From NCBI GenBank assembly GCA_044892525.1, contig CM097885.1, forward strand, positions 22,074,001 to 22,138,000: a stretch of DNA of 64,000 bases, given 5' to 3'. Positions 5,967 to 37,383 of the stretch are shown one piece after another. A program made the translations under genes and the position numbers. The notes beneath the pieces were generated by a model. That model worked only from the letters and a program-made list of their open reading frames with translations. It was not told the DNA's origin and ran no database searches. Position 1 is the first letter of the stretch, and each line of letters starts with the position of its first letter. The DNA is from Schmidtea polychroa (taxonomy: Eukaryota).

Positions 5967-6840
5967 AGTAGTAGGATGTGGGCTCCCCAGACCATGTCCC
6001 CTCCAGATCACATATACCCCCTCCCCCCCCCCTCCCCCCCCGGTCTGAAAAATTTTATTTTTTTTTAGAACGATGCCTAATATTTTTAGAACTATTACGT
6101 AATCAATGCCAAATATTTTTAGAACGATGCCTAATATTTTTAGAACTATTACGTAATTTTTTTTAAATTAAGTGATCCAGCGGGGACCTACTTTTTTTCA
6201 TCCCAAAAATTATTGTTCCCGCCAACATATTATATTGATCGATAGCTTATTTTAAAGCTCTGTGCAAGAACTTTCTAATGAGATATAGATTTTTATCATA
6301 CGATGACTCATCACATTTTTAGAACAAAGACAATGACTCATCACATTTTTAGAATGATGTCTAATATTTTAGAATGATGCCAAATATTTTTAGAATGATG
6401 CCAAATATTTTTAGAACGATGCCTAATATTTTTAGAACTATTACGTAATCGATGTCTAATATTTTTAGAACGATGCCAAATATTTTTAGAATGGTGCCTA
6501 ATATTTTTAGAACGATTACGTCATACTTTTAGAACGATGCCTAATATTTTTAGAACTATTACGTAATCAATGCCTAATATTTTTAGAACGATGCCTAATA
6601 TTTTTAGAACTATTACGTAATTTTTTTAAATTAATTGGTCCAGCGGTGACCTACTTTTTTTCTTCCCAAAAGTAATGTTTCCATCATCCGAATTTATTAA
6701 TCACACACTTATTTTAAAGCCCAGTGCAAAATCTATATACTGATATATAAATATTATTATTAACATTATTTTACACACGGGGGGAGGGGGTATATGTGGC
6801 CGAGCGGGCTCCTGGCCGGGCGGGCCCACATCATACTACT
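5967..6840. mobile_element. 874 bp non-coding mini-element with Polinton-like AGTAGTA termini at the palindrome centre
   Basis: Starts AGTAGTAGGATGTGGGC...CACATATACCCCCTCCCC and ends GGGGAGGGGGTATATGTG...GCCCACATCATACTACT (imperfect TIR). Interior is ~20 bp repeats (TTTTTAGAACGATGCCTAATA, TTTTTAGAACTATTACGTAA). Confidence 0.65.
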
Positions 6841-6959
6841 CTACTGTTTTTTATCTTTTATGTCTCTTTTCACATGTCTGATCGAGATTTAAGTGTAACA
6901 ATGTATAGGCAGAATTTAATTCTCTACAACATGGCGCAATTACAATTTCAGTTTGATGC

Positions 6960-7375
6960 TTTGTGTGTAATGCACACATGTTTTTACAATAAATTTGTAG
7001 TTTTTCGCGCGGTTAACGTAATTTTCTTGGATTTTTATTCATATATTATATAGATAAAATTTAATTTTCTATAAAATAGCTTGATTAAAAATTATGTCTC
7101 GTATGTTGTGTGTAATACACACATGTTTTTATGATAAATTTGTATTTTTCATACAGTTAACGTAATTTTCTTAGGATTTTATTCATATAATATATAGATA
7201 AAATTTAATTTTCTATAAAATGGATTGATTAGAAATTATGTATCTTGTTTTGTGTGTAATACACACATGTTTTTACGATAAATTTGTATTTATTATACGT
7301 TAACGTAATTTCCTTGGATATTTATTCATATATTATATAGATAAAATTTAATTTTCTATAAAATGGATTGATCTA
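6960..7375. repeat. Three tandem ~140 bp units upstream of pPolB (mirrored at ~5430-5845)
   Basis: TGTGTGTAATACACACATGTTTT...GTTAACGTAATTT...TAGATAAAATTTAATTTTCTATAAAAT occurs three times. Confidence 0.85.
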
Positions 7376-7810
7376 GAGTTTAAAATGTTGTATTATTTTA
7401 TTACTTTGTTGCAATATTTTTATTATTTTAGTTACAATATTCTTTTTAATTTGTTGTCCGTCTTCGAAATAATGTATTGATTTGTCTTAATTACCATTAT
7501 TATTTTATTACTTTGTTGCAATATTTTTATTATTTTAGTTACAATTTGATAAATATTTTACAAATTTGTTGAAATTTTCTGAAATATGTTACTACTTTGT
7601 TGTAATATTTTCTAATCTTGTTACAATTTGCTTAAATATTTTACAACTGTTGAAAATTTATCTGAAATATGTTATTACTTTGTTACAATTTTATGAAAAC
7701 GTTATTACTGTTTTGCAATTTGATGAAAAATGATATTACTTTGTGGGTTCATCACATTATTTTTATTAAATTATTATGAAAATGTTAAATAAGTCAACTT
7801 TAGCGTCAAA

Positions 7811-8696
7811 ATGTGTTTTAAAATATGTCCCGTATGTAAGACTAGTGACCCCGTAACATATAGCGTTTTTTATAATAAACATAAAAATCATTTAGATAGG
7901 TTTAATTTTAAAAAAGATAGTGTTTTTAAAAGACCCTCAACTATAGAAAAAAATAATAAAAATTAAAAAATTAAATTAGATACTTCTTCTTTTGAATCCC
8001 AGGTCGGATTGCCTTTTGTGGAATCCAATGATGGATTGGTTGTCGAATCCCATGATGGATTGGTTGTTGAATCCCAGGTCGGATTAGATAATATTTCCCT
8101 TGACTCTTGGGATGGATTAAATATAATACAAATAGGTGGAAATGTTCCAATAATACAAAAAGATCTAAGAGGTACCCATCAAATATTAAGCTTAAATACA
8201 AGCGACTTAAATATAAAAGAAATAATATTTCCTGAACAACTAATAAAAAAATTACGAGATATTATTAACGAATTAGGCTCCGTCAAAATTCAATTCGGAA
8301 TAACAATCGAATTTGAAAAAGACGGGGAAATAAAGGTTAATAATATCTCAAATTATGCAAAGCCTTTAACTGCATCATTTTTTGACGAAGGCATTAGGGA
8401 ACTAAACGAGAAAATAAGTAATATCACAGAGTTAGGAAGTAGCTGGATCATAAAAAAAAATAACAGAAATTCACTTCACCATAACAAAGATAAGTAGGCT
8501 AAGTAGATTAAGTGGTAGGAGTTTCATTGAAACACCTACTTATCTAAAAAATAAATATTGTTTAATTAATATAAAAAACACCGATGATTCATGTTTTTTA
8601 TATAGCATTTTAGCTATTTTAAAATATGATGAGGTTAGTAGTTATGCTAGAAATAGGACATCCAGTTATAATTTATCTGAATTAATATATAATCCA
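7811..8696 (+). pseudogene. Disrupted N-terminal extension of pPolB, right-arm copy
   Basis: ATG 7811 reads MCFKICPVCK...HKNH (Zn-finger-like), hits an in-frame TAA near 7964, then continues in frame into the 8009 ORF (ESxxGL repeats, GSSWII). After a frameshift at the A9 run 8452-8460 it reads ITEIHFTITK...GRSFIETPTYLKNKYCLINIKNTDDSCFLYSILAIL, the conserved Polinton pPolB N-terminal block, in frame with 8697. Confidence 0.8.
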
Positions 8697-11591
8697 TTGG
8701 ACTTACCCATGAAATTAAAAGATATTAGAAAATTCGAGGCCAAAAATCCAGGCTTAATAATTAACGTTTTTTCTTATGACAATAACAAACAATTAATAGA
8801 TAATTACGTATTAAAACACCCACATTTAGATATTATACATCGTTCCAAAGTTTTAAATGGAACTGTAATTAATTTACTATTATTAAATAAAGGAAACAAT
8901 TTCCATTACGTTGCTATAAGTAATTTAAATAAGTTAATGAATTGTCATATCAACACTAGTTGTCCTACACGCATACGTTCATTATGGTGCCATCGGTGTT
9001 TGAATGGGTTTAATAATAAACACGCACTAGAAAAACATGAAATATTATGTAAACGTAATCAATTAGGAACAACTCTTTACACCTTCCCTCAAAATAAATT
9101 ATTACAGTTTACTGACTGGTCGAAAACAGTAACTCCTCCTTTTGTAGTTTATGCAGATTTTGAGGCTATTTTACCTTCTGATAATGATCATTTCCAACGA
9201 CACATGCCAATATCTGCTGGTCTTTTACTTGTAAATAACTTTGACGGATCTAAATCTTATCAGCAGTTCATAGGTTTAGATTGCGTCGAGAGTTTTTTAA
9301 GTGCTATAGAGGATATAGCATTAAATAAGGTTCTTCCTTTTTATTATAAAATGGGTAGGAAACCTATGATGAAATTAACAAAAATTGAACAACGTCAATT
9401 TGTTAGTGCATCTGTTTGTTATCTTTGTATGAAATCTATCGTCGATCCTGTTAGAGATCACGATCATTTTACGGGGAAATACTTGGGTGCAGCTTGTAGC
9501 ACATGTAACGTAAATCGGAAAATAAATAAAATTTTGCCTATCGTATTTCACAACTTGAAGGGATACGATATGCACCATATACTTAAATATGGATTAAATA
9601 AATTTAAAAATTGGAATTTAGGGTGCATCCCAATAACTACGGAAAAATTTATATCTTTGATTGCTCATTTAGGTAAAATTAGCCTAAGATTCATTGATTC
9701 GTATCAATTTGTCAATGATTCTTTGGCTAAAGCAGTCAAAACTTTGAATTCTTTGCCTTTTACTAATTCTGCTTTTTCTGGCACCATAGTAAGTGAAAAA
9801 GGAATCTTCCCTTATAATTTCGCCACTTCTTTAGATATTCTCCAAACTACTTATGAATTACCACCAATCTGGGAGGGTGTCACTGAGCTTGAGTATGAAA
9901 AAGCTCAGGAGATTTGGGTAGAAACTAATTGCGTAACTTTATTAGATTATATGATGATCTACCTAAAACTTGATTGTTTTCTTTTGGCTGATTTCTTTCA
10001 TCAGTTTCGGTTGAAATCCATTGCTCACAATAGATTGGAACCATTGAATTATTTCGGAATTCCAGGCATGTCTTGGTCTTCTGCATTAATGTCTTTAAAT
10101 GAACCAATTGAACTCATAACTGAAAACGAAATGTTTAGCTTTTATGAGGGTGGAATAAGAGGCGGTCTTACTTTTGTGAATAAGCATTACGTAAAAACCG
10201 ACGAGAACACTGAGTTACTATATATAGATATTAATAATCTTTATGGCTGGGCTTTAAGTCAATCATTACCTTGTGGCGAATTTTGTTGGGTTCTTGATGG
10301 ATTTGATAAAATAATGGATGAATGTAGGAATTTAAATCTTGAATCTTTGTCTTATGGATACACACTTGAAGTTGATCTTGTAATTCCTTCTGAGCTTCAT
10401 GATAAGTTGGATGATTTCCCTGTAGCTGCTGAAAAAATGAAACCTGCTGGGTCTAAGGTTGAAAAATTATTATTAACTCATCTTCCAAAATCTAATTATG
10501 TTATTCATTGGAGATTATTAAAATTATATTTGGAACTTGGTGTTAAAGTAACACGTGTAAATAGGGGTGTAAGATTTAAGCAATCACCAATTTTTAAAAA
10601 ATATATAGATACAAATACCGAATTAAGATCAAAAAGCGTAAATAGCTTAGATAAAAATTATTATAAATTGCTAAATAATAGTTTATACGGCAAAACAGTT
10701 GAAAATTTAAAGAGAAGAATGAATCTTCGTCTTTGTACAACTGCCGGTAAATTAGTTAAATATTCGTCAAAACCGACTTTTAAAAAATCTATTAAAATAG
10801 CAGATAATTTAATTGCAGCACTATTGAATTCCGATTCTATATGTTTAGATAGACCGAGTTACATTGGTCAATCTGTACTTGATCTATCTAAACTTAGAAT
10901 GTATGAATTGCAATATAAGGATCTGGAATCATTTCGCAATGAGTTTAATTGTAAAATTAATATCGTTGCAGGTGATACAGATTCTTTTTTCCTCGAAGTC
11001 ATTAACTGCAAACTTGAGGTTCTTTTACCTGCAATGGTTCGAGATAATTTATTGGATACTTCCAATTACAATAGTTGTCATTCCTTATATAGTAAGAACC
11101 TTGATTCAGTCATTGGAAAGTTCAAAGACGAGAATAAAGGTCTTAAATATAAGGAGTGGGTTTTTCTTAGACCTAAATGTTATAGCTTGTTGGGTGATGA
11201 GGAAACAAAAAAGGCTAAAGGTGTAACATTGAAAGGTAGTGACATAAAACATCAGTCATACCTGGATTGTTATAACACTAACCAGATTTTTTCGGTTCCT
11301 CAGACTAAAATAACAAGCAAAAATCATCAAATTTTTACAATTAAAAACACAAAAATAGCACTAACTAACAAAGATGACAAAAGGGTTTGGGTGGGGCAAA
11401 ATACTAGTCTTGCATATGGGCATGTAAGATTAAGTGAATTAAATATTGGAGAAAATGTTGGAGAAATTGTTGCAGAAAATGTTTCAGAAAATGTTGGAGA
11501 AAATGATGGAGAAGATGAGGAAGAATTAAATGAAGATTTTGGAGAAGATGACATCGATATCGATGACGTTATTTTGTCCGATGAGGACTAA
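8697..11591 (+). CDS. Protein-primed family B DNA polymerase (Polinton/Maverick type), right-arm copy
   Basis: Same 964 aa translation and motifs as 1215-4109. Confidence 0.93.
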   Translation: MDLPMKLKDIRKFEAKNPGLIINVFSYDNNKQLIDNYVLKHPHLDIIHRSKVLNGTVINLLLLNKGNNFHYVAISNLNKLMNCHINTSCPTRIRSLWCHRCLNGFNNKHALEKHEILCKRNQLGTTLYTFPQNKLLQFTDWSKTVTPPFVVYADFEAILPSDNDHFQRHMPISAGLLLVNNFDGSKSYQQFIGLDCVESFLSAIEDIALNKVLPFYYKMGRKPMMKLTKIEQRQFVSASVCYLCMKSIVDPVRDHDHFTGKYLGAACSTCNVNRKINKILPIVFHNLKGYDMHHILKYGLNKFKNWNLGCIPITTEKFISLIAHLGKISLRFIDSYQFVNDSLAKAVKTLNSLPFTNSAFSGTIVSEKGIFPYNFATSLDILQTTYELPPIWEGVTELEYEKAQEIWVETNCVTLLDYMMIYLKLDCFLLADFFHQFRLKSIAHNRLEPLNYFGIPGMSWSSALMSLNEPIELITENEMFSFYEGGIRGGLTFVNKHYVKTDENTELLYIDINNLYGWALSQSLPCGEFCWVLDGFDKIMDECRNLNLESLSYGYTLEVDLVIPSELHDKLDDFPVAAEKMKPAGSKVEKLLLTHLPKSNYVIHWRLLKLYLELGVKVTRVNRGVRFKQSPIFKKYIDTNTELRSKSVNSLDKNYYKLLNNSLYGKTVENLKRRMNLRLCTTAGKLVKYSSKPTFKKSIKIADNLIAALLNSDSICLDRPSYIGQSVLDLSKLRMYELQYKDLESFRNEFNCKINIVAGDTDSFFLEVINCKLEVLLPAMVRDNLLDTSNYNSCHSLYSKNLDSVIGKFKDENKGLKYKEWVFLRPKCYSLLGDEETKKAKGVTLKGSDIKHQSYLDCYNTNQIFSVPQTKITSKNHQIFTIKNTKIALTNKDDKRVWVGQNTSLAYGHVRLSELNIGENVGEIVAENVSENVGENDGEDEEELNEDFGEDDIDIDDVILSDED

Positions 11592-11778
11592 TTTTATTGA
11601 ATAAATTTTATATCTTTACATTTGTTATTTGGTAAATTTTTATGTTTGTTATGTGTCTAGTTCATTTTTATGTGTTTAGTTAATGTTTATATGTTTTGTT
11701 ATGTGTCTAGTTATTTTTATGTGTTTAGTTAATTTTTTATGTGTTGTATAGTATTTGGTTGATATATTATTAATATTA

Positions 11779-11849
<71 letters not shown>

Positions 11850-12817
11850 TCATAAAAATTTTCATTAAAAATTATCTTAAAAATTATTCTATTAAAATTT
11901 CCATTAAAAATTACCATTGAAAATTATTCATAAAAATTTCTATTAAAAATTACTTAAAAAATAATTCATTAAAATTTCCATTAAAAAATTTCAATTCTCA
12001 AACACCTTCTATTTTTGTTAATAAATTTAAAAATCTTACTTTAATTTACTTATTACATTACTTTAATTTACTTATTTAAAAATTATTACTTTAATTTACT
12101 TATTTAACTTTAATTTAAATTTTTTTTTACCATTGATTATTTAATTTTAAAATTTGGACCTTAATTAACTTTAATTTAATTTTTAGAACCATAATTTACT
12201 TTAATTTTAAAATTTTTGACCATTATTTACTGTAATTTAATTTTTAGAACCATTATTTACTGTAATTTAAAATATTTGGACCATTATTTACTTTAATTTA
12301 ATTTTTTAGAACCATTATTTACTTTAATTTAAAAATTTGGATCATAATTTACTTTAATTTAAATTTTTGGACTGTAATTCAAAAATTTTGACCATAATTT
12401 ACTTTAATTTAATTTTTAAGAACCATAATTTACTTTAATTTAATTTTTAAGAACCATAATTTACTTTAATTTAAAAATTTGGACCATAATTTACTGTAAT
12501 TTAATTTTTTAGAACCATTATTTACTTTAATTGAAAAATCTTAGCCCATAATTTACTTATTTAGACCATAATTTACTTTATTTCAAAAATAAATCTGAAC
12601 CTTGATTTACTTAAATTTTTAGACCCATCATTTACTTTATTTTTAAATTTTAGACCCATAATTTACTTTATTTTAAAAATTTACTATGCGTTTTTTAATG
12701 TAAACCACCTTTTCTATTGAAATTCTCATGACCAAGAAGATCCCCTCACTATAGTGTGAAAAATCCATGCTTTTTTATTGAAGACTACCTTTTTCTATTG
12801 AAATTCTCAGGACCAAG

Positions 12818-12858
12818 GAGACCCACCCAAATAATATTTATCCTTGGCTTGTTTATTG

Positions 12859-12892
<34 letters not shown>

Positions 12893-13037
12893 TATTTAAA
12901 ATCCCAGAAAACATTGGGTATTACGGCAACAATTATGTAATCAAAAAATGTCTACGGAAAAAGTTATGCAATCAAAAGTTTGCAACATTTTTTACCCCCC
13001 CCCCCCTATTGCTGCCGCGGGCCACTAACTCCCTACT
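12818..13037. mobile_element. Outer terminus of the pPolB palindromic element (...GCGGGCCACTAACTCCCTACT)
   Basis: Homologous to 32040-32122 and 32329-32360 (GCGGGCCACTATCTACCTACT[ACT]). Similarity stops sharply at CTACT, i.e. a 5'-AGTAG terminus, and unrelated coding sequence follows. Confidence 0.75.
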
Positions 13038-13383
13038 TATACCTCAAGAATTAGATGTAGACGGATATTTATGTTCAGATACAGGATATTCAATAAATTA
13101 TGTAATAGTAATCAAAAATCAGATATCAAATAAAGTATATGAGTCCGACAGGTCAAATAATGAGATAGAAAGGGGTGATGAAAATGAAAGAAGAGTTGAA
13201 AATGAAGGTGTACTAGATAACAAGGACATAGGAACTAATGATAAAGATACAAGTATAATAACAGAAGTATTAAAGGAAGGGCAAGTAACCAAAAATGAAA
13301 TGAATAGTGAAATAAAGACAAAAAAGCTTAGAACTTTGTATGAAATAAAAAAGAGCCTGGTGAAGTCAGAATTAGAAGTGGAT

Positions 13384-13752: not shown

Positions 13753-13833
13753 CTTACGATAAATGAAAATAACGAAATTAATATACCTCATAAATCGCTA
13801 AATGGGAGAGTTAGCCCAATATTGAGAAAAACG

Positions 13834-15700: not shown

Positions 15701-16099
15701 AATATAAAGATATGGCGAATGTGAGAGCACAGTTAAAAACTGATCAAAAGAGTGAAGAATCTTTGTGTGAATCGAGGGATAGAAATAGTGGCAATAACAA
15801 TAACAATGACAATGGCAGGAACGAGCAAATGTATTTTAGAAAAGAAATAATAAAAAGCGAGGTAAAACCAGAGTCACGGTGCCTAATAGAACAGATGCCA
15901 AATCTTACAGGAATCGACTCTCTCTCAAAATGGTATACACCGGTATTCCTTCCAACAGCACCAACATATCCAAGTGAAAGGCTAAAAGAAATGAAACCAG
16001 TAGAACATATTAAACTAGAAGCTGAAAGGATTGAACCAACAAGTGCCGAAATAGAACGGAAAAACATGCTCGAATTACCATGTAGTTATGCGTTGATGA

Positions 16100-17970: not shown

Positions 17971-18189
17971 ATCAGCAAATAATATAAAGGAATTACAATA
18001 TGATCAAGAAAATGATGAGGAACTAAATCAATTACGAAAAAATGCAGTAACAATTAAAAAGGAGAGTGATTGGAAACATATTGTTGAGGAAAAACATAAA
18101 TATATTATCCACGAGGGTTTATTAAAATGTGTAAAAAATGAAAATTTACTAATTATAGTTCCAGCAAAACATCGAGAAGCATTATTGTT

Positions 18190-19900: not shown

Positions 19901-19989
19901 TATCCGTTAAGATCGAAAAAGAACAAATCAGTAGAAGAAAAAGTGGTCAAGCAAAAAGTTATTAAAAACCCAGTACCCTTAGGATATAC

Positions 19990-21208: not shown

Positions 21209-21716
21209 TGAGATACATTTATTTTGCATGCAATTATGATATTATAATAGTACTGTATTAGTAGTAACTTTTATTTTATGATAGTTGTAAAATTTGCACC
21301 TTTCAATCAAAGAGAAATATGATTGGCAAAAAAAGATGAACAAAAAATTTAAATTTAACAACTGTACATAAGGGGTAGTAAAAATAATTAAAATCAGTTT
21401 AATTAGTTAAATCAAAGAAAATAAAATCTGTCAAAATTAAATAAGTAAATTTTTATTAATATTTATTATTTATACAATGATCACCAAGGCAGTGCCCCTG
21501 GGGTACTCTACCGTGTTGATCACTTCAATCTTAAAATCTAACAATTGATTGATTATTGTTATATATATTATGATTAATAAAAACTTTCCCTCGTCTTATA
21601 TATATATATATTTTGGCGTCCCATCCCATAATGGAATATTAAATTAAATAAATAAAATAATCAAAGCGAATAAATGAACACATAAATAAAGTAATCAAAT
21701 AAAATAATCCAAACAA

Positions 21717-22577: not shown

Positions 22578-23282
22578 AGTATCCCATCTAATTTGTATTA
22601 TTGGTCTGTTACATGAAATACATCTCCGACATAATCCCCAATGATGTCTGGTATCAAATTTCTCATCCCCCTGCCGCAATTAACAACTCTCAACCCTCTG
22701 TTAAAAACAATGTTAAACGGGAAAACTTCAAAAAATAGTTCTGAAGGAATTGACATGTTGTCACCTTCACTTTTAAAGTTTTGATTGTCAAATTTTAATC
22801 TTAGAATGCAATTAAACACTTTATTCGCCATTTTATTTTTCCAATAATTTCTATTTCAATTGTTGTGTTGTAAAAGGTTTTGCGATTTCAAAAATCTGTC
22901 CTCGAACATAATGCACAAATCCCGCTCTTTGTGTTCGATATTGCAAAGTTATTCCGGTTCGACTTTCGTTAACGCAGAAAAATGATGGCGGTTTCAGTTT
23001 TGGATAACTAAATCTGAGATATTCATGCAAATTATCTAGGCCGTTGAGAAAATCTCTAAGATCTCTTCCAAGCATCCGAAGAATCGAGTCGTATCTGTAA
23101 TGAGACAAAAATGAAATGAAATATTTTCCATTTTGAAACATCACCACGTCTTTCGTAATTCGACAATAATCGGCTGCTGTGTACACGATTTTTTTTTCAA
23201 CAGTTTTTCATCATAGACTTCATGAATGGCAAACACGTTGACGTCGAGTTTGGATTTTTCAAGAATTTGAGTCCAGGCCTGT
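22578..23282 (-). pseudogene. Soluble guanylate cyclase exon (H-NOX plus start of HNOBA/PAS), frameshifted and 5'-truncated
   Basis: WTQILEKS...HEVYDE; LRMLGRDLRDFLNGLDNLHEYLRFSYPKLKPPSFFC...YRTQRAG; FFEVFPFNIVFN; RPIIQIRWDT followed by a GTGAGT donor near 22577. Several 1-nt indels; the start is replaced by the foldback arm at 23283. Confidence 0.9.
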
Positions 23283-25902
23283 AATACAAAAAGCTGGTCT
23301 ACACTAAAAAAAAAGCATGGAATTTTCACACTATAGTGAGGGGGTCTCGATGGTCCTGGGATTTTCAATACAAAAAAAATTTTTCAATACAAAAATCCGA
23401 CTACCACTAAAAAAGCCAAGGATTTTTCAGACTATAGTGAGGTGGGTCTCCTTGGTCCTGAGAAATAGGTGGTCTACACTAAAAAAACGTGGTAATTTAA
23501 GGTCTCAGGATATTTTCAATACAAAAAGCTGGTCTACACTAAAAAAGCATGGTAATTTAAGGTCTCAGGATATTTTCAATACAAAAAGGCTGGTCTACAC
23601 TAAAAAAGCCAAGGATTTTTCAGACTATAGTGAGGTGAGTCTCCTTGGTCCTGAGAAATAGGTGGTCTACACTAAAAACGTGGTAAATTTTTCAATTAAA
23701 GTAAATAATGGTCCAAATTTTAAAATTAAAGTAAATTATGGTTCTAAAAATTAAATTATAGTAAATTATGGCTCAAATTTTTAAATTACAGTAAATTATG
23801 GTCCTAAAAAATTAAATTACAGTAAATTATGGCTCAAATTTTTAAATTACAGTAAATTATGGTCCAAATTTTTAAATTAAAGTAAATTATGGTTCTAAAA
23901 ATTAAATTAAAGTAAATTATGGCTCAAATTTTTCAATTACAGTAAATAATGGTTCTAAAAATTGAAATTACAGTAAATTATGGTCAAACATTTTAAATTA
24001 AAGTAAATAATGGTCCAAATTTTTCAAATACAGTAAATTATGGGTCTAAAAATTAAATTACAGTAAATAATGGTTCTAAAAATTAAATTAAAGTAAATTA
24101 TGGTTCTAAAATATTAAATTACAGTAAATTATGGTCCAGATTTTTCAATTAAAGTAAATAATGGTCCAAATTTTTAAATTAAAGTAAATTTAAGTTCTTA
24201 AAAATTAAATTACAGTAAATAATGGTCCAAATTTTTAAATTAAGTAATCAATGGTAAAAAATTTTAAATAAGTAAATTAAAGTAATAATTTTTAAATTAA
24301 GTAATCAATGGTAAAAAATTTTAAATAAGTAAATTAAAGTAAATTAAAGTAAGATTTTAAAATTTAATTACAAAATAATAGAAGGTGTTTGAGAATTGAA
24401 ATTTTTTAATGAAAATTTTTATGAAATAATTTTTAAGTAATTTTTAATAGAAATTTTAATGAAATATTTTTCAATGGTAATTTTTAATGGAAATTTTTAT
24501 GGAATAATTTTTTAAGTAATTTTTAATGGAAATTTTTATGAAATATTTTTCAAAGACAAATTTTAATAATAATTCAACAACAAACCAACAACTTAGTACC
24601 AACAACCAGTAACTTACGAACATGTATTAACAACCAGATACCTACAACTAGTTACATGATACTAAGTAAATACAACCACCTAACAAGTACTAACAACCAA
24701 AAACAAGCAACCAACCAGGTACCAGTTAACAACTACTAAGTACCTACAACCAACTAGTTACCTGATACCAAGTACTTACAACTAAATACTAACAACCAGT
24801 TACCTGATACCTAGTACTTACAACTAGTTATTAACAACCAAAAACAAGCAACCAACTAGGTACCAAGTACTAACAACCAAAAACAACTAGCTAACAACTA
24901 GATACCAAGTACCTAAAACCACCTACTTATTAACTAGCTACCAAGTACTTACAACTAGCTACGACCTACCAAGTACTAACAACTAACAACAACCAGGTAA
25001 TAGATACCAAGTACTAACAACCAACATCAACCAGGTACTAAGCATTATCAACCAAGTACCTAAAACCACCTAACAAGTACTAACAACCAACATCAACCAG
25101 GTACTAAGCATTATCAACCAAGTACCTAAAACCACCTAACAAGTACATACAACCAACATCAACCAAGTACCTACAACTAGATACTAACAAACAGTTACCA
25201 AGTACCTACAACCACCTACCCATTAACTAGCTACAACCAGCTAACAACTAGCTACCAAGTACTAACAACCAACAACCAGCTAACAACTAACTACCAGATA
25301 CCTACTACTTACTACCAACAACTAAGTACTAACAACCAGCTAACAACTAGATACCAGGTACTAAGCATTATCAACCAAGTACCTACAACTAGATACCAAG
25401 TACCTACAACCACCTACCTATTAACTAGCTACTAGTTACTAACAACTAGATACCAAGTACATACAACCAACATCAACCAGGTACTAAGCATTATCAACCA
25501 AGTACTAACAACCAAGTACAAGATACCTAGTACTGTCAACTAGATACCAAACACTTACAACCAGATGACCACATGAAATTATTGGTTAAATATGAAAATA
25601 AGGGTTATAATTAGTTGTTTAGTAAATTATGGTGTAAAATTAAGTAATAAAGCATAAATAGGTAAATTAAGGATAAGTAAATTAAAGTTAAAAAATTAAA
25701 TTAAAGTTAAATAAGTAAATTAAAGTAATAATTTTTAAAGAATTTAATTAAAGTAATAATTTTTAAATAAATAATGTAATAAGTAAATTAAAGTAAGATT
25801 TTTAAATTTATTATCAAAAGATTGAATAACCACCAACTTTTTTGAGAAATGTAATTTTTAATGAAAATTTAAATGGAAATTTTAATGGAATAATAATAAT
25901 AA

Positions 25903-25948
<46 letters not shown>

Positions 25949-26359
25949 TCAACAGTTACCAACAATCGGTTACTAAATATTTTTAACTAGGTGCTACCAA
26001 GTACTTACATCTAGATACCACGTACTAAATAACTCTCAAACAACCAGATACTTACAACTAACTACTAAATATTCTTCACTGTATTTTATGAAATGTATTT
26101 TTTAAATTAATTTTTTATCTATCTACAAAAATATATTTAATTACAATCATTAGAAAAACCTTTTCAAATTTAACAAAAATGTTGATTTTCATCAAAAAAC
26201 CACAACTCAATCACTTTAAAACACTACGTGAAATTCAAAATAATTTAAATTACAATGAAAGACTAATGAATTCTAATTTACAAAACATTCTTCTTTTAAA
26301 TGATAACTACTGACTTATTATTGCAAAGTAAAAATCACATTCAATAAATACTTATTATT
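23283..26359. repeat. Left arm of second, gene-less foldback
   Basis: Reverse complement of 28508-31822, apart from scattered SNPs, one extra ~30 bp unit and an extra ~200 bp block in the right arm. Lacks the outermost ~300 bp. Confidence 0.95.
24575..25565. repeat. Strand-skewed variant minisatellite (CAACCAAGTACTAA / CAACTAGATAC), mirrored at ~29305-30297
   Basis: C/A-rich, G-poor shuffled short units; traces also near 26490-26790 and 35835-36460. Confidence 0.9.
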
Positions 26360-28507
26360 GATCAGTTTTATTATATATACTCTGAGTTTATCCGACAGGA
26401 TGTTTTGACCCCCTAAGGGTACTGGTCGCAAGGGTACTGGTCGTAAAGGTACTAGTCGTAGGGGTATTGGTAACACTCAACCACAACCTACCCATTAAGT
26501 AGTTACTATCAATCAGCTAACAACTAGATACCAACTACTAACAACCACCATCAAAACCCATCGAGAAATTAACAAATATCAACCTACAACTAGATACTTA
26601 CAACCAGATACCTGCTACCAAGTACTTACAACAAGATACCAAGTACCAACAATCAACTAACCACACATAAAAATAATAGCAATTAAATACAAAATATTCT
26701 TCATCACATACAATATCTTCTTATCAAAATCTAAAAAGTCAATCAGATATCAACTATCAACTACTAACAACCAACAACTATGTACTAACACAAATTGATC
26801 TTTAAAAGTAAATACTCATCACTTGAAAAATTGGATGAAAAATTAATTGAACTCAAGGCATCAATAACTAGGTAAAAATTGATTAAATTATTGTAAAAAT
26901 TTAAATTATTCAAAATAAATATCATAAAAATTTAATTAATGGACAAGAAAGAATTCTAATCATTAATCATCCAGTAAATAAAAAAATATGATCATTCAAG
27001 TTGAATCAACTAAGATAATAAATTAATAAGATAAGATTTAGTAGATAATTGATTTAGATTGAATAAATTAATTGAAATAAAATTAATTTTAATTATTTCT
27101 TTTTTAAAAGTAATACATGTACTCAAATTGATTGACTGATTGCTCAATATATTCAAAAATTCAGTATAAATTCATTACAATTATCAATGTCATCAATCTA
27201 CAATAAAAATAATTATCATTAAATTCCAAAAGAGACTGATAGCTAATGATAAAATCTAACAAACCAGTAAATTCATTTAAATGACAATAATTGGTATATC
27301 CAAGTGAGTTCTCCAATAAAATCATCTAAAAAGAATCATTTTCCCCTAAATATATCAATATTTAAAGATTGGTATTTTAATTATAAGTACTTGTTAAAAT
27401 CCCCTTAAATGACTATATTTCTATCCTTAATTCATATTATTACAAATATCATCTAAAAAGCATCAAATTTCATTGAAATAACACTATCTTTAAAGATTGA
27501 TATTTTAATGATAAGTACCCTTAAAACACTATATATTCACCTCAAACTAACAAGATTCCTTAAAATCTCTTAAATGACTATATTTCTACCCTTAATCCAT
27601 ATTATTACAAATATTTCACTAAAATCACCTAAAAAGCATCAAATTTCCCTGAAATACCAATCTTTAAAGATTAGTATTTTATCGATAAATATCCTTAAAA
27701 GGTTATATATTTACCTCAGACTAATAAGATTGCTTAAAATCCCCTTTAAATGACTTTAATTCCTATTATCACGAATATTATAAAACATGTAAAATAATTT
27801 GGTCATTAACCCTAAATAATTGATAAAATCTAATGATAAAACCGGTTATAATTAACTTTTTGTTAATCACTGTACTCGAAATTTAAAATAAATATAACTG
27901 ACTAGGTCCCATTATAAGATACAATTTATCCATTCAATAAAATATATTTCTTCAAATGATCATTTTACCGATATTCAACCGATTTAATTACTAATTAAAA
28001 TCAATCGATAGATTTCTTTCAATAAAGATCAATTTTATTTAGTCGATGTTTTAAGTCCATATTTCTAAACTTTTGTCATTCTCCATCTAAATAAAGATAA
28101 AAACAATTTAAAGTTGATATCAATCCCAATTATCTGTAAAGTTTTCATTGTCAAAACCAAGTAAATCGATCATTATCCTCTCCACTTATATTCCACCAAT
28201 TTTTCACCCATTTGAATTTATCATCGAGTAATTTCCTCACTTTAATGAAGATTCTTACCACCTTCATTGTTAATTTTATCAAAGTTTAAAGAATATTTCT
28301 CTTTACATTGCTTACCACATAAGATTTTTTATCGAAATTTATGATAATTTTACTGATTCAATGAAGAATGAGTTAATTAATATATACTCTGAGTTTATCC
28401 GACAAAATATTCTGTCCCCCTATGGGTATTGCTCACAAGGGTACTACTCACATTCAACATGTCGCAAGGGTACTTTTAATACTTTTATTTGAATGGTTAT
28501 TTAGGCA

Positions 28508-28918
28508 AATAATAAGTATTTATTGAATGTGATTTTTACTTTGCAATAATAAGTCAGTAGTTATCATTTAAAAGAAGAATGTTTTGTAAATTAGAATTCA
28601 TTAGTCTTTCATTGTAATTTAAATTATTTTGAATTTCACGTAGTGTTTTAAAGTGATTGAGTTGTGGTTTTTTGATGAAAATCAACATTTTTGTTAAATT
28701 TGAAAAGGTTTTTCTAATGATTGTAATTAAATATATTTTTGTAGATAGATAAAAAATTAATTTAAAAAATACATTTCATAAAATACAGTGAAGAATATTT
28801 AGTAGTTAGTTGTAAGTATCTGGTTGTTTGAGAGTTATTTAGTACGTGGTATCTAGATGTAAGTACTTGGTAGCACCTAGTTAAAAATATTTAGTAACCG
28901 ATTGTTGGTAACTGTTGA

Positions 28919-28970
<52 letters not shown>

Positions 28971-31900
28971 TTATTATTATTATTCCATTAAAATTTCCAT
29001 TTAAATTTTCATTAAAAATTACATTTCTCAAAAAAGTTGGTGGTTATTCAATCTTTTGATAATAAATTTAAAAATCTTACTTTAATTTACTTATTACATT
29101 ATTTATTTAAAAATTATTACTTTAATTAAATTCTTTAAAAATTATTACTTTAATTTACTTATTTAACTTTAATTTAATTTTTTAACTTTAATTTACTTAT
29201 CCTTAATTTACCTATTTATGCTTTATTACTTAATTTTACACCATAATTTACTAAACAACTAATTATAACCCTTATTTTCATATTTAACCAATAATTTCAT
29301 GTGGTCATCTGGTTGTAAGTGTTTGGTATCTAGTTGACAGTACTAGGTATCTTGTACTTGGTTGTTAGTACTTGGTTGATAATGCTTAGTACCTGGTTGA
29401 TGTTGGTTGTATGTACTTGGTATCTAGTTGTTAGTAACTAGTAGCTAGTTAATAGGTAGGTGGTTGTAGGTACTTGGTATCTAGTTGTAGGTACTTGGTT
29501 GATAATGCTTAGTACCTGGTATCTAGTTGTTAGCTGGTTGTTAGTACTTAGTTGTTGGTTGTAAGTAGTAGGTATCTGGTAGTTAGTTGTTAGCTGGTTG
29601 TTGGTTGTTAGTACTTGGTAGCTAGTTGTTAGCTGGTTGTAGCTAGTTAATGGGTAGGTGGTTGTAGGTACTTGGTAACTGTTTGTTAGTATCTAGTTGT
29701 AGGTACTTGGTTGATGTTGGTTGTATGTACTTGTTAGGTGGTTTTAGGTACTTGGTTGATAATGCTTAGTACCTGGTTGATGTTGGTTGTTAGTACTTGT
29801 TAGGTGGTTTTAGGTACTTGGTTGATAATGCTTAGTACCTGGTTGATGTTGGTTGTTAGTACTTGGTATCTATTACCTGGTTGTTGTTAGTTGTTAGTAC
29901 TTGGTAGGTCGTAGCTAGTTGTAAGTACTTGGTAGCTAGTTAATAAGTAGGTGGTTTTAGGTACTTGGTATCTAGTTGTTAGCTAGTTGTTTTTGGTTGT
30001 TAGTACTTGGTACCTAGTTGGTTGCTTGTTTTTGGTTGTTAATAACTAGTTGTAAGTACTAGGTATCAGGTAACTGGTTGTTAGTATTTAGTTGTAAGTA
30101 CTTGGTATCAGGTAACTAGTTGGTTGTAGGTACTTAGTAGTTGTTAACTGGTACCTAGTTGGTTGCTTGTTTTTGGTTGTTAGTACTTGTTAGGTGGTTG
30201 TATTTACTTAGTATCATGTAACTAGTTGTAGGTATCTGGTTGTTAATACATGTTCGTAAGTTACTGGTTGTTGGTACTAAGTTGTTGGTTTGTTGTTGAA
30301 TTATTAATAAAATTTGTCTTTGAAAAATATTTCATAAAAATTTCCATTAAAAATTACTTAAAAAATTATTCCATAAAAATTTCCATTAAAAATTACCATT
30401 GAAAAATATTTCATTAAAATTTCTATTAAAAATTACTTAAAAATTATTTCATAAAAATTTTCATTAAAAAATTTCAATTCTCAAACACCTTCTATTATTT
30501 TGTAATTAAATTTTAAAATCTTACTTTAATTTACTTTAATTTACTTATTTAAAATTTTTTACCATTGATTACTTAATTTAAAAATTATTACTTTAATTTA
30601 CTTATTTAAAATTTTTTACCATTGATTACTTAATTTAAAAATTTGGACCATTATTTACTGTAATTTAATTTTTAAGAACTTAAATTTACTTTAATTTAAA
30701 AATTTGGACCATTATTTACTTTAATTGAAAAATCTGGACCATAATTTACTGTAATTTAATATTTTAGAACCATAATTTACTTTAATTTAATTTTTAGAAC
30801 CATTATTTACTGTAATTTAATTTTTAGACCCATAATTTACTGTATTTGAAAAATTTGGACCATTATTTACTTTAATTTAAAATGTTTGACCATAATTTAC
30901 TGTAATTTCAATTTTTAGAACCATTATTTACTGTAATTGAAAAATTTGAGCCATAATTTACTTTAATTTAATTTTTAGAACCATAATTTACTTAAATTAA
31001 AAATTTGGACCATAATTTACTGTAATTTAAAAATTTGAGCCATAATTTACTGTAATTTAATTTTTTAGAACCATAATTTACTGTAATTTAATTTTTTAGG
31101 ACCATAATTTACTGTAATTTAAAAATTTGAGCCATAATTTACTATAATTTATTTTTTAGAACCATAATTTACTTTAATTTTAAAATTTGGACCATTATTT
31201 ACTTTAATTGAAAAATTTACCACGTTTTTAGTGTAGACCACCTATTTCTCAGGACCAAGGAGACTCACCTCACTATAGTCTGAAAAATCCTTGGCTTTTT
31301 TAGTGTAGACCAGCCTTTTTGTATTGAAAATATCCTGAGACCTTAAATTACCATGCTTTTTTAGTGTAGACCAGCTTTTTGTATTGAAAATATCCTGAGA
31401 CCTTAAATTGCCACGTTTTTTTAGTGTAGACCACCTATTTCTCAGGACCAAGGAGACCCACCTCACTATAGTCTGAAAAATCCTTGGCTTTTTTAGTGAT
31501 AGTCGGATTTTTGTATTGAAAAATTTTTTTTGTATTGAAAATCCCAGGACCATCGAGACCCCCTCACTATAGTGTGAATAATCCTTGGCTTTTTTAGTGA
31601 TAGTCGGATTTTTGTATTGAAAAATTTTTTTTTTGTATTGAAAATCCCAGGACCATCGAGACCCCCTCACTATAGTCTGAAAATTCCATGCTTTTTTAGT
31701 GAGACCGCCTTTTTGTATAGAAAAAAATTTTTTGTATTGAAAATCCCAGGACCATCGAGACCCACCTCACTATAGTGTGAAAATTCCATGCTTTTTTTTA
31801 GTGTAGACCAGCTTTTTGTATTGAAAATATTCTGAGACCTTAAATTACCATGCTTTTTTATTGGTAGACGGATTTTTGTATAGAAAAAAAATTTTTTGTA

Positions 31901-32122
31901 TTGAAAATCCCAGGACCATCGTTTTTGTATTGAAAAAAATTTTTTGTATTGAAAATCCCAGGACCATCGTTTTTGTATTGAAAAAATTTTTTTTGTATTG
32001 AAAATCCCAGGACCATCGAGACCCCCTCACTATAGTGTGGAACAATTGCGTAATAAAAAGTTGCAACAAAAAAAAATCGTGCAATAAAAAAAATTGTTGC
32101 AGCGGGCCACTATCTACCTACT
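28508..32122. repeat. Right arm of second foldback, ending in the AGTAG-type terminus
   Basis: Mirror of 23283-26359 plus terminal ...GCAGCGGGCCACTATCTACCTACT. Confidence 0.93.
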
Positions 32123-32495
32123 TTCAGTATTTAGCTACGAGTCAATAATAGTTCCTGTGAAATTATATCGTTTTAGGATTATTAGGTTGTAATGAATGTA
32201 ATTGTACAGTAATTTAGATTTATGTTTTACTTTAGAACCAGTTTTTATTAATTATCCACGGTTTTATTAAGTCGTTTAGGGTTAATGATCAATTAGGTGT
32301 TTATTTACTTGGTTTTGACAATGAAATATTGTTGCAGCGGGCCACTATCTACCTACTACTGAATATTTCCCTTATTAAAATTATCTTTCGATTTTACGCT
32401 GCTTACCATTTTAGAATAAGATTTTTTATCAAAATTTGTGATAATTTACTGATTCAATTTGATGGAGTTATTGTTAATTCGTTTTATTATATATA

Positions 32496-34565
32496 CTCTG
32501 AGTTTATCCGACAAGATATTTTGACCCCCCATGGGTATTGGTCGTAAGGTACTGGTCGTAAGGGTACTGGTATGTTTTAATGATTTTATTTAATTGGTTA
32601 TTATTTGGCACTAAATTAATTGGTAATTTTTTAGAGTTGATGTTAGTGGGATTTAGTGAATATTCAAGTGAATTACTATAATTTTTGTGAATTTCATGTT
32701 AATTGAAAGAATATTTAAGAATTTAAGGTTTTATTGTTAATTCTAAGACAAATTTAATTAATTTCTTGATAATTTGCTATATTTTATTGACTTATTTTTA
32801 AATAAAAATTATTTTTTATGACAGTTAGGTTAATAATTAGAGTTTTTACAATAATCAAGTGATAGGATAAATTATTCAATTTTTATGATGACTTTGTAAT
32901 GATAATTTGATTAAATAATTTTTTCATATATTTTCTAAGAATATTTCCATTTACGCATTGATGAACTTTTAAATATTGAAAATCTAAGTTGAAACCAGCT
33001 AATTTTATCAATAATTTTATTTGAAATCTACTTGAAAATTATTGTAAATTGTACTGAAATTTGTGATTTAGTTTGGAAGATAATAATTGGCTGAATCGAT
33101 GAAGAATTATGATCAATCAATGAGAAATTATCATCCCTAGTTAGATATTTGATGATAAATGTGGTGAAATATTTGTAGAAAATATTGATTTTAGTGAATG
33201 TTGATCTTTTAGTGGGCTCTTACTACATGAATTTAGCTACTAAATTATTTCAATGGAAAAATGTTTGGTATCTGTAACAATTAAATAAAATTCATATTTT
33301 GAAGAATTTTCTATGGATTTTAAAAGAATTGATATATTAAAGCAGTGTTTCTCAAACTATGGGTCGCGACCCATTTTTGGGTCGCGAAAGAATTTTTGGT
33401 GGGTCGCGATGACTTATGGAAAGATCTACAAATATAAATTTTGGAAGTTTAAGCCTTTTAAATTTATTTAATCTTTGTCATGTGGGTCGCAATAAAATTT
33501 TTGGCATGAAATGTCAAAAATTTGGGTCGTGATCAAAAAAGTTTGAGAACCACTGTATTAAAGGGCTCAAGTGGGTGAACTTAATGGATATAGTCGGTTG
33601 GATTTAGTGAGGGTTTGGTTAAGATGTGAATATATGATTTTTAAGGAATATATTCGGTTGGATGTTTAAAGGGGTAGAAATATTTGGTGAGGGATCGGTT
33701 AAGGTGGAAATGTTTTGAATATCTCTATTTAATTCGATAATTTTCTTATTGGTAAAATATCAATGTTTCAAGGCAAATATTCAGTATTTAGCTATGAGTC
33801 AATAATAGTTCCTGTGAAATTATATCGTTTTAGGATTATTAGGTTGTAATGAATGTAATTGTACAGTAATTTAGATTTATGTTTTACTTTAGAACCAGTT
33901 TTTATTAATTATCCACGGTTTTATTAAGTCGTTTAGGGTTAATGATCAATTAGGTGTTTATTTACTTGGTTTTGACAATGAAATATCTGAAATATTTAGA
34001 ATTAATTGGGAATGATATCAAAGGTTATTGCTTTAAATTATTTACCTTTATTTAACATGTTATAGACGGATATTCATTGTGTGGATATCGATGACAAAAC
34101 TTGAGAAATATTGATTTAAAAGAGTTGGACATCGACAACAACTAAAGAAAATTGAACTTTATTGAAGGAAATTTATGATTTTAATTAGAAATTAAATCGG
34201 CTGAATATCAGTTAAGGGTAAAATATGATCATTTGAAGGAATATTGTTATCGGGTGGATAAACCTTTCAATGATATTTTGCTAAATTACCTTTTGCCAAA
34301 TATTATTTTAAATGACAAAGTTAACCAATAAATTAGTCGATCGAAATAAGAATTCGGTAAAAGTTACATTTAAAATATTCCAATTATTCACGAATTTCTG
34401 ATAAAGATATATATGAGCATCTATTTCTCACTAAATTACCTAGGAATTTCTAAATGATATACATGTACCTTAATTAATATACCCTCGCGACATGTTGAAT
34501 GTGAGTAGTACCCTTACGACAAATACACATAGGGGGACAGAATATTTTGTCGGATAAATTCAGAC
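32496..34565. mobile_element. Non-autonomous TIR element (CTCTGAGTTTATCCGACA...TGTCGGATAAATTCAGAC), TA-flanked
   Basis: Inverted pair of the motif with TA on both sides. Other copies of the end lie near 26380, 28386, 36274 and 36731; the interior resembles 27300-28150 inverted. Confidence 0.55.
33343..33555. mobile_element. hAT (Charlie-like) MITE
   Basis: TIR CAGTGTTTCTCAAAC / GTTTGAGAACCACTG, 8 bp TSD TATTAAAG, internal GGGTCGCG repeats. Confidence 0.92.
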
Positions 34566-35002
34566 TATATATATATATATATATATAAACTCAATATGCT
34601 ATGGTTTTTATTGATTAATTTGTTGTATATTGCATTAATACATCAAAATGTCAGATAATATTTATAAATTAACTAAAAAATACACAAAAATACTATATTA
34701 CCTAAGAATTCTGTTATGTTTCTAGTTAAATAATTGAAATAATTGGTATATGTATCAACTATATAAAAATTGTTATGAATCCAAGAATATTTTAATTAAA
34801 TGGTATAACCAAAAACATGGATTTCTAACTAAATTGGTAAATTTATCATATCATCACCATTTGGTAGTTGCGCCCAATATATTTTATTACCAAGATTATT
34901 TCATATTATTCAATGTTTGAAAATTTTCTATATTATAGTACCGTCATTATGTATGGTAATAATTCATTTGACTTTGATATTGTATTGATTTGTATTGAGA
35001 AC

Positions 35003-35235
35003 TTACATGTATATAGTATGATATTCATTAATCAGTGTTGAACAGGCTTGACAATTGTGAACATTCTTCTCGTGACACTTAGAAAAAACAATAAGTGACC
35101 ACACGGTAAATACAAAACCGAAACTTGATTTTCTTTACAAATTGAACAAGTTAAATACCTTTTCTTAACATCGTTCAGTTTTTCCGTTAGCTTATTTTCA
35201 ATCAGTGTAAAGTTTTTATGAAATAATTTTCCAAG
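35003..35235 (-). pseudogene. IAP-type C-terminal RING finger relic
   Basis: ENKLTEKLNDVKKRYLTCSICKENQVSVLYLPCGHLLF, a 1-nt deletion, then SKCHEKNVHNCQACSTLINEYHTIYM-stop. Confidence 0.75.
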
Positions 35236-36273
35236 TCAAAATTAAATACAAATTTTTATTAAATTAATTTTAAAGACAGATTTCAATTAACCACTACTAA
35301 TAAAAATAATAGTAAATGAAAAGGGTAAATTTTAAAACTAACTAATAAATTTAGAAAGAGAATGAGAATTGATAGTAATAATTAAATTAAAGTAAATTAT
35401 GGACATAAATTTTTAATTAAAGTAATAATTTTTAATCTATTATAAAAAAGTTTGAATGATAGACAGGTTTTGAGAAATGAAAATTTTAATGAAATAGTTT
35501 TTAAAGAAAATTTAGATGCAAATTTTACAAATAATAATAATGATAATAATGATAATAAAATTATATTAATAAAAATAATAATAAAAATAATAATAATAAT
35601 AAAAATAATACTTTATATTGTGAAGCATTAATAATGTAATTATATTTGAATATTTTTTATACATGTATAACAATTAATTAAAACAAATTTAAATAATATT
35701 AATAGATTAAATTAATTAAAATGGAATTGAGAAATGATGCAGTATATCAAATTATTGGTCCAAGGGCTGTAGGAAAACATTATTTGTTTGTAAATTATTA
35801 CAATCAAATATGTTTAAGTCAAAATTTAAAAGGTCAACCAGATACTTACAATCAAATACTTACAACAATGTATTTCTAACAAACAGCTAGATACCAAATA
35901 CTTTCAACATGATACCACGTACTAACTAACTCTCAAACAACCAGATACTTACAACTAACTACTTACAATCAACTAAATATTCTTCATTGTATTTTATGAA
36001 ATGCTTTTTAAATTTTTTTATCTGTCTTCAAAATATGTTTAATTACAATCAGTAGAAAAACCTTTTCAAAATGTCTAAATTTAACAAAAATGATGATATT
36101 CATCAAAAAATGAATAATAACGTGGGATTGATGATAATTTAAATTAAAATGAAAGACTATAGAATTCTAATTTACAAAACATTCTTCTTTTAATTGATTA
36201 CTACTGACTTATTATTGCAATGTAAAAATCGCATTCAATAAATACTTATTGTTGATCAGTTTTATTATATATA

Positions 36274-36731
36274 CTCTGAGTTTATCCGACAGGATGTTTT
36301 GACCCCCTAAGGGTACTGGTCGTAAGGGTATTGCTAACACTCAACCCCCACCTACCCATTTACTAGATACTAGATACCAACAACTAGCTAACAACTAGAT
36401 ACTAAGTACTTACAACCGACAACAACCAGATACTAAGCATTATCAACCTACAACTATATAACAACAATCAGTAAACATTGTATAGATCATGTGGTTGAAA
36501 ATGTTATGAACTGTGGAGATGATGAATGTGAAAGTGGTAATAAATTTTAGTGTATATTTAAAGTATAATATTTAGAATTTCTTTGTTAAAGTTTTGTCTT
36601 GAATATTTTTACCAGTAACTTTGTGAACAATACCCATGTGACTTGTCGAGTGTGAGCAGTACCCTAGTGATCAGTACCTTTGTGAGCATTACCCATAGGG
36701 GGACAGAATATTTTGTCGGATAGACTAGGAG
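36274..36731. mobile_element. Short element with the same CTCTGAGTTTATCCGACA TIR family
   Basis: Forward end at 36274 and reverse end TGTCGGATAGACTAGGAG at 36731, TA-flanked. Confidence 0.55.
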
Positions 36732-36786
<55 letters not shown>

Positions 36787-36829
36787 TATAATAATAATAA
36801 TAATAATAATAATAAAACTTAGAAAATAA

Positions 36830-37383
36830 TATTTTTAAAAAAAAAATAAATGACCTTGAAAAAAAATAAATGACCTTGAAAAAATAATATTTTGAATAAT
36901 AATAATAATAGTCAAATGACCTTGAAAATGGTCTCGGGAAAACGTTAATAATTTTGCCAATAATAATGATGATAATAATATTTATATATTAGTAGATAGA
37001 TCTTGCACTGGGCTTTAAAATGAGCTATCGATCGATGAAGTAGAATGATGGGAACGATAACTTTTGGGCAAACAAAAACCAGGAGCTCCCCCAGCCACTA
37101 ATAATATTTTTGAAAAATAATAATAAAGATAATAATATTTTAAAAAATAATAATATGACCTTGATGATTCATCCTAATGAGTCATATGACCTTGGGAATG
37201 ACGTTGGAGAGGCACGCGACCTTGAAATGACCTTGAAACGATCTGGATGAGTCATGGTCTTTGTTTAAAATTTGACCTTGAAAAAAATGACCTTGACCGT
37301 TTTTTTTTAAAAAAATTCCCCGGGGGGAGGGGGTATATGTGGCCGGGGGAGCTCCTGGCCGGGGGAGCTCCAATCATACTACT
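36830..37383. mobile_element. Terminal fragment related to the central mini-element
   Basis: Ends GGGGGGAGGGGGTATATGTGGCCG...GCTCC...ATCATACTACT like 6779-6840; 36995-37080 matches 6195-6275 and 6655-6740 inverted; many TGACCTTGA motifs. Confidence 0.7.

Follow-up and report, generated by a model that had tools for sequence, protein, structure and literature searches.

The foldback and its neighbour

We analysed a 64-kb stretch of the Schmidtea polychroa genome (contig CM097885.1, positions 22,074,001 to 22,138,000; 29.5% G+C), called the window below, in which blastn self-comparison reveals two large inverted repeats. The first (1-6028 / 6779-12817, 99.6% identity) is a palindrome carrying a frame for protein-primed PolB (pPolB). 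The second (23283-26359 / 28508-31618, 98.2% identity over 3,115 columns) forms most of an 8.8-kb foldback, which is likely to be a non-autonomous, gene-less, palindromic derivative of a Polinton/Maverick element that integrated into an older relative and was later inverted and truncated. Exact extension puts the inner arm ends at exactly 26359 and 28508, with 2,148 bp between them. An earlier note on this DNA had described a foldback with arms of more than 3 kb around a 2.1-kb spacer; the structure and both lengths are real, although the spacer is itself high-copy family sequence and not a mere spacer.

The arms, 3,077 bp on the left and 3,615 bp on the right, make up three quarters of the element. 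Global alignment of their inner 2.9 kb (23464-26400 against the reverse complement of 28470-31439) yields 6 substitutions, four of them A/T swaps, and 3 indels: one 31-bp array unit, a single base, and 6 bp corresponding to two AAT units. Reading inward from 32122, the outer half of the right arm runs from the terminus through six CTATAGTGAGG-anchored units and a 30-bp array of ~22 copies to a GAAGGTGTTTGAGAATTG block; the inner half comprises a ~1-kb minisatellite, a second diverged array tail with its block, (AAT)n, and a unique part. The second block copy is 85.6% identical to the first, and the inner arm matches 35951-36266 at 91.2%. The left arm begins at 23283; the base opposite it in the right arm is 31822, which lies 300 bp inside the terminus. 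The left arm is without two ~100-bp units that the right arm carries and has no terminus; only the right arm is complete to its terminus. The module order of the first element, previously ascribed to both arms, therefore holds for the right arm and not for the left, and the idea of an intact two-ended element has to be given up, with the left end lost and the target duplication displaced.

The foldback encodes no gene, as the earlier note had said. Its longest stop-free frame (174 aa) is composed of repeat units and that of the spacer is 72 aa; Pfam scans covered 20 of the 34 frames listed, and none of the 13 that lie in the element reached the cut-off for any family; tblastn with 410 frames from 80 related metagenome loci found no match inside it. 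The element thus encodes neither a protein-primed PolB nor a retroviral-like integrase. An Rfam search of the whole window gave 0 matches. Folded as single strands, four termini and two TATATA modules had z-scores from -1.4 to +0.4 and no special hairpin, and a hairpin-end reading of the parvovirus or Helitron type was therefore dropped.

The right arm and the first element have their outer module order in common, with 79.8% identity over 1,029 columns and 27 of 31 positions at the terminus, which bears out the terminal block reported earlier. Beyond this block nothing is alignable (local scores 28-42). Judged by sequence, the foldback and the pPolB palindrome belong to sister families, with ~80% identity across 1 kb and no relationship further in. 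The suggestion that a minisatellite was swapped in for pPolB is rejected on the same scores; it survives as a description.

Features of the foldback, its flanks and the first palindrome (window coordinates)
Feature	Position	Strand	Evidence or remarks
First palindrome, right arm	6779..13037	-	Terminus at 13037; pPolB frame 8454-11591
Host soluble guanylate cyclase (HNOB) exon	22578..23284	-	Pfam PF07700, E 2.7e-31; cut at 5' side by left arm
Left arm, truncated	23283..26359	+	Outer ~300 bp including terminus gone; blastn, exact extension, unit map
Spacer, 2,148 bp	26360..28507	.	Gene-less, high-copy; TATATA-CTCTGAGTTTATCCGACA module at both ends, same orientation
Right arm, 3,615 bp	28508..32122	-	Complete to terminus; blastn, global alignment, unit map
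Second diverged array tail, block and (AAT)n, then unique inner arm	28508..29300	-	Left mate 25570-26359
CCAAGTAC-type minisatellite, ~1 kb	29300..30290	-	Left mate 24580-25570
GAAGGTGTTTGAGAATTG block and AT-rich 13-mer array	30300..30520	-	Left mate 24360-24574; last part common to first element
30-bp array, 22.8 copies	30537..31218	-	Left mate 23685-24336, 21.8 copies
Subterminal 48-, 60- and ~101-bp CTATAGTGAGG/GGTCCTG units	31240..32040	-	Six anchors, vs three on left arm
Terminus AGTAGGTAG...GTGGCCCGC	32093..32122	-	27/31 identical to pPolB-palindrome terminus 13008-13037
Putative target duplication, copy 1 (TTCAGT)	32123..32128	+
207-bp flank	32123..32329	+	206/207 identical to 33780-33986
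Stranded second terminus	32328..32357	-	30/30 identical to 32093-32122; first 2 bp common with 207-bp flank
Putative target duplication, copy 2 (ACTGAA)	32358..32363	+	Reverse complement of copy 1
Remains of older relative, probable insertion target	32358..37383	-	Same modules; AGTAGTATGAT-type Polinton terminus at 37383
Other insertion flank	32364..32610	+	Homologous to spacer 28286-28507; score 210 vs maximum 54 in 100 shuffles
Second 207-bp copy, running into a spacer-homologous block	33780..34262	-	Homologous to spacer 27925-28188; score 250 vs maximum 93 in 100 shuffles

The TATATA-CTCTGAGTTTATCCGACA module (~70-130 bp) occurs six times, at 26373, 28380, 32488, 34573, 36266 and 36738, and four of the copies form two inward-facing pairs (32488/34573 and 36266/36738). 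The module is unexplained; it may be a promoter or the ends of a separate TA-targeting element.

A displaced second terminus and a putative flipped target duplication

The terminal motif GTGGCCCGC is found three times in the window (13017, 32102 and 32337), always on the minus strand, where 0.01 occurrences are expected; this window-wide search found none at the left end of the foldback. The third occurrence marks a second terminus, overlooked in the earlier note, which sits 235 bp beyond the first with the 207-bp flank between them.

The two termini abut TTCAGT and ACTGAA, which are reverse complements. Among the seven ends and junctions in the window, this is the only one of 21 pairs that matches at 6 of 6 positions in this way; by base composition, the chance of such a match is ~3e-4 per pair and ~0.007 after 21 tries. 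The duplication is 6 bp long, positions 7 onward belonging to the flanks. We read this pair, from its sequence, as a Polinton-size 6-bp target duplication that was probably flipped by a later rearrangement. The stranded end was also considered as AGTAGTAGG with a different flank, a reading that was rejected because ACTGAA also stands at the uninterrupted site 33780-33785.

The flanks point the same way. A single C/T change separates the two 207-bp copies. The two flank-homologous blocks lie 97 bp apart in the element's own spacer and 156 bp apart across the insertion site, and because the flanks are collinear with the block order of that spacer, they appear to be two halves of one sister-repeat unit, interrupted at ACTGAA.

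The DNA on the far side looks like the remains of an older relative of the foldback. It contains a third block copy (81-84%), the inner unique part (91%) and four more TATATA-CTCTGAGTTTATCCGACA modules. Termini of its AGTAGTATGAT type are also found, pointing inward, in the middle of the first element (5967 and 6840); two end types and shuffled modules are therefore present in one window. A RING-finger remnant within the older relative (PF13920, 35035-35235, minus strand; E 4.5e-6, 26.8 bits vs a cut-off of 27) is the sole gene trace within these repeats. A 213-bp miniature element at 33343-33555 is presumably of hAT type, judging by its CAGTG ends and by an 8-bp duplication, TATTAAAG.

Abundance in sequencing runs

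The stretch is present wholly or partly in 20 of the 24 sequencing runs listed, with at least half of its words in 6. Three of these were examined for the foldback: X1 and X2, which come from one study (X1 may be the source sample), and X5, which comes from another. The records aligned on 22620-28640, mostly at 90-99% identity, number 253,799 in X1, 39,840 in X2 and 44,079 in X5. The median summed contig depth of the spacer relative to the adjacent exon, which is not a copy number, is 853x, 708x and 646x, respectively. The arms and spacer are clearly a large and varied repeat family. All modules are very abundant in the runs, in contigs too short to reveal how the ends pair.

Family contigs mostly match the stretch at 90-99%, whereas only 6 substitutions separate the two arms over 2.9 kb, so each arm resembles its partner more than it resembles most family members. 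A/T swaps are also the commonest variant class in the family (50 of 145 places in X1). The palindrome and the orientation of its arms are not confirmed by raw data; they rest on the assembled sequence.

In a further run, X7, which is RNA by guess only and was not used for abundance, the depth of the spacer is ~2x that of the exon. The outer-unit bins of X7 (23223-23624) reach 4,482-6,430 vs 68-133, far deeper than spacer or exon; this could hint at transcription from the ends, and we do not take it as evidence of transcription.

The left junction lies in a guanylate cyclase exon

The left arm ends against the HNOB exon, with which it has 2 bp in common at the junction (the exon end was read by eye). 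In X2 and X5, a contig over 23012-23284 continues for 53 and 55 letters off the stretch; 23284 is also the site of a loose end in X7. By eye, these extra letters of the X2 and X5 contigs carry on the HNOB frame without a stop; the exon was therefore cut at the left arm. The contigs represent either an empty allele at this site or another copy of the gene. Allowing up to 3 mismatches, the missing 5' part of the exon has 0 matches in the window, and the left junction therefore cannot be read as a clean insertion.

The exon shifts frame three times in the window and may belong to a pseudogene copy. It is long, with a 49-bp tandem duplication at its 3' end and small indel variants in other runs.

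The pPolB palindrome and its relatives

The pPolB frame of the first element (PF03175, E 5.3e-31) has 184 homologues at E 1e-20 or better, the top one at 61%. Over ~5.9 kb, two indels are the only differences between the arms of this element. At its centre, an 874-bp segment (5967-6840) has inward AGTAGTA-type Polinton ends that are ~80% alike; the 6 bp outside the segment are inverted copies, with no direct duplication, and the centre therefore resembles a fold point more than a plain insertion.

From 311 confirmed metagenome loci related to pPolB, 80 were kept, and three of the longer close ones were scanned with Pfam (23 frames). Two of them, L005 and L006 (48-50% identity to pPolB), encode an rve integrase, an A32 packaging ATPase and TBP; in L004, three scanned frames had no Pfam match. 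The TBP genes (PF00352) lie beside the packaging ATPase, at 11333-11806 (minus strand) in L005 and 10321-10779 (minus strand) in L006, and L005 also has a ubiquitin-conjugating-like frame at 13477-13974. Among viral contigs, 7 candidate pPolB relatives were found and 0 confirmed. A blastn search with 11 non-coding modules gave no match in the 80 metagenome loci, which have no terminal inverted repeat like them.

How the foldback may have arisen

A Polinton/Maverick derivative would account for these observations as follows. Both arms would end in one origin/attachment sequence; the protein-primed polymerase of a helper Polinton would copy the element and the helper's integrase would insert it. 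Insertion would have occurred at an ACTGAA site inside the older relative. Next, an inversion would have taken most of the element and the 207-bp flank but spared 30 bp at one end; the remainder of that end would then have been deleted, along with adjacent DNA up to the guanylate cyclase exon. The second 207-bp copy would be the mirror arm of the older relative. After inversion and the deletion of one end, this copy would no longer be mobile as a unit. It is damaged as a specimen, and intact copies would better serve a description of the family. It is at the same time a worked case of element decay, in which nesting in a relative is followed by an inversion that hides the target duplication and a deletion that reaches into a host-gene exon.

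How the arms arose and stay alike is the weakest step. It is plausible, with a likelihood we put a little short of even, that this happens by copy-back, in which a displaced single strand folds and one arm is templated on the other. A diverged paralog (35892-36471, 77.7%) has the same arm-spacer join as the one at 26359, and the left arm and spacer are therefore old, continuous family sequence. At the right side of the spacer, family contigs have loose ends at 28472 and 28510, where they part from the stretch, and the continuation of the paralog at 32610 is a different one; the turn at 28507/28508 is therefore a derived join, with at most ~3 bp of microhomology by eye. The arm patterns of the foldback and of the first element both fit the fold-back of a displaced single strand. 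The ends are alike at 30 of 30 positions, as in a copy-back genome, a weak point since ordinary terminal inverted repeats would be too.

We offer a broader proposal more tentatively, as a possibility that we think somewhat doubtful. The Polintons of this lineage may shed copy-back satellite genomes, giant palindromes formed when the polymerase folds back on the displaced strand, with the origin and integrase ends kept. Each round of replication would re-homogenise them; they would be rivals for helper proteins, much as defective interfering particles are, and the integrase would lodge them in the chromosome as an archive. On this view, the gene-less palindrome and the one with pPolB would be two products of one process with different turn points. 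A racket-shaped single-stranded intermediate is described as the standing model of Polinton replication, one without a direct test (PMC4196379), and panhandles have been proposed as a homology-restoring device in PRD1 and adenovirus, for which direct evidence is said to be lacking (PMC11886824). Multi-kb gene-less palindromes are by-products predicted by the racket model, and their turn points and arm identity make that model testable from genomes.

Several observations weigh against a Polinton derivative with this history. The outermost letters of the foldback's terminus, AGTAGG, match the common (AGT)2 motif at 5 of 6 positions, while other ends in the window read AGTAGT. The target-duplication test is post hoc and concerns one site. 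The second 207-bp copy needs the target itself to be a foldback, and an inverted match there (32358-32373 vs 33770-33785, 15/16) scores no better when extended than shuffles do (30 and 37 vs maxima of 37 and 42). A templated copy of the left junction, inserted in the right flank, could equally have given these parts. Abundance was gauged by summed depth. Among the 32 records listed, none bridges 23283, 26359 or 28508 with 31 letters on each side, and the 15 joints listed are all skips, with no strand change among them. Other genes follow the 3' end of pPolB in L005 and L006, where the first element has its terminus, and the first element is therefore no simple copy-back of their layout. The terminus pattern has 0 matches in metagenome contigs and 0 in viral contigs. 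Finally, the window has no Polinton integrase (the integrase matches at 18313-20674 belong to a Gypsy element), and no autonomous Polinton with the foldback's terminus was seen in the window or in these contigs.

Alternatives to a mobile Polinton derivative

A one-ended, Polinton-derived repeat could have turned palindromic in place, through chromosomal fold-back or template switching, without ever being mobile as a unit. Such an origin would suit the single complete terminus in position, the scant microhomology at the inner turn and a locus that is plainly rearranged, with its 207-bp duplication, stranded end and cut exon; an association of Polinton ends with inversions and further rearrangements is also described for C. 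elegans (10.1101/2024.01.15.575659). The target site speaks against it. Two identical termini bear complementary halves of one site, and therefore an element with two identical ends inserted here, whereas a chromosomal fold-back would copy the terminus with its own flank and leave the same 6-mer twice instead of reverse complements. We consider an origin in place unlikely.

The palindrome might also be an artefact, made by amplification, by fold-back of long reads or in assembling a region rich in repeats. Multiple displacement amplification is reported to yield palindromic, multi-inversion reads in small animals (PMC13265396), and the source library may have been amplified. The junctions are not spanned by any of the contigs listed, and runs X2, X5 and X7 have the exon continuing past 23284 into non-arm sequence. 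In contrast, the arms differ by 6 substitutions, by the number of array units and by two whole ~100-bp units, in line with the earlier argument against a pure read artefact; four of the substitutions fall into the commonest variant class of the family. The 207-bp copies also differ, the outer flanks are unlike, so that the mirror symmetry does not run on into them, and a chimera would yield no matched target duplication. A plain read artefact is unlikely, and an artefact of any of these kinds, local mis-assembly included, seems quite improbable to us. Harder still to credit is the capture of Polinton subterminal DNA by a classical foldback (FB, Tetris or Galileo type) from the Mutator or P superfamily. 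The long modular arms, tandem repeats and variable middle domain do recall Tetris and Galileo, yet the duplication is 6 bp, where Galileo has 7 and Tetris 8-10, the end itself is common to the pPolB element, and Pfam found no Mutator or P transposase among the 22 longer window frames scanned.

Relation to known systems

Repbase lists some non-autonomous Polinton families. Papers on non-autonomous or palindromic Polintons, taken by title and the start of the abstract and outside Repbase, supplements and most subscription papers, report no multi-kb gene-less palindromes, and the part of PMC6431247 available to us makes no mention of them.

In the excerpts of the literature used here, Polintons are described as having a 6-bp target duplication (PMC8097293, PMC3014272), an (AGT)2 or (AG)3 end motif (PMC8097293) and terminal inverted repeats of 100-1,500 bp in elements of 13-25 kb (PMC10748475). 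The C. elegans Polinton repeats, which flank inversions, are given as 744 bp (10.1101/2024.01.15.575659), and one butterfly Polinton family is described with gene-bearing arms of ~2 kb (10.1101/2025.02.07.637071). The foldback resembles these elements in its AGT-type end, 6-bp duplication and terminal inverted repeats, and its end is common with that of a pPolB-bearing neighbour whose relatives carry an integrase and a packaging ATPase. It differs in being a foldback without genes, in arms of 3.1-3.6 kb that go beyond the 100-1,500 bp range, and in its AGTAGG end.

With FB, Tetris and Galileo the foldback has in common long modular inverted repeats, tandem arrays, a variable middle, the absence of coding sequence, rearranged copies and a link to inversions. 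Those elements are described as belonging mostly to Mutator (8-10 bp duplications) or P (7 bp), with arms of up to 1.2-1.7 kb (PMC4079207, PMC3573991), in contrast to the Polinton-type end and 6 bp found here. The label "FB-like" that the foldback had been given thus fits its architecture and not its enzyme, since the 6-bp duplication and AGTAG end point towards a Polinton integrase; its portrayal as a non-autonomous, Polinton-ended member of a large repeat family agrees with the terminus match, the duplication and the contig depth. In its workings the element is like a non-autonomous Polinton, and in its shape like a foldback; by genes and arm length it is no Polinton, and by its duplication no Mutator or P member. 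Derivatives of this kind would bring a third enzyme system, beside Mutator and P, to the foldback architecture.

Copy-back and snap-back defective viral genomes are similar in that both ends derive from one terminus, the long arms are self-complementary and a helper is needed, as far as they are described in PMC13506859. They are known mainly from negative-strand RNA viruses, whereas the foldback is a chromosomal DNA element for which a template switch is our inference. Tlr1 of Tetrahymena is another likeness, as Tlr elements are described as sometimes viewed as non-autonomous Polintons (PMC5499653); Tlr1 has genes and is now placed among Polinton-like viruses, unlike the gene-less foldback.

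Neighbouring DNA

The terminus of the first palindrome abuts a decayed Gypsy element (13038-21400) that carries a Monjiviricetes-type fusion glycoprotein (PF24664) and, in its integrase region, a 655-bp tandem duplication (18270-19582). Further along the window lie a piggyBac-type transposase fragment (PF13843, 39286-39699, minus strand), a 441-aa frame at 44634-45956 (minus strand) that is transposase-like by eye and has no Pfam match, and the start of another LTR element (62142-64000, plus strand).

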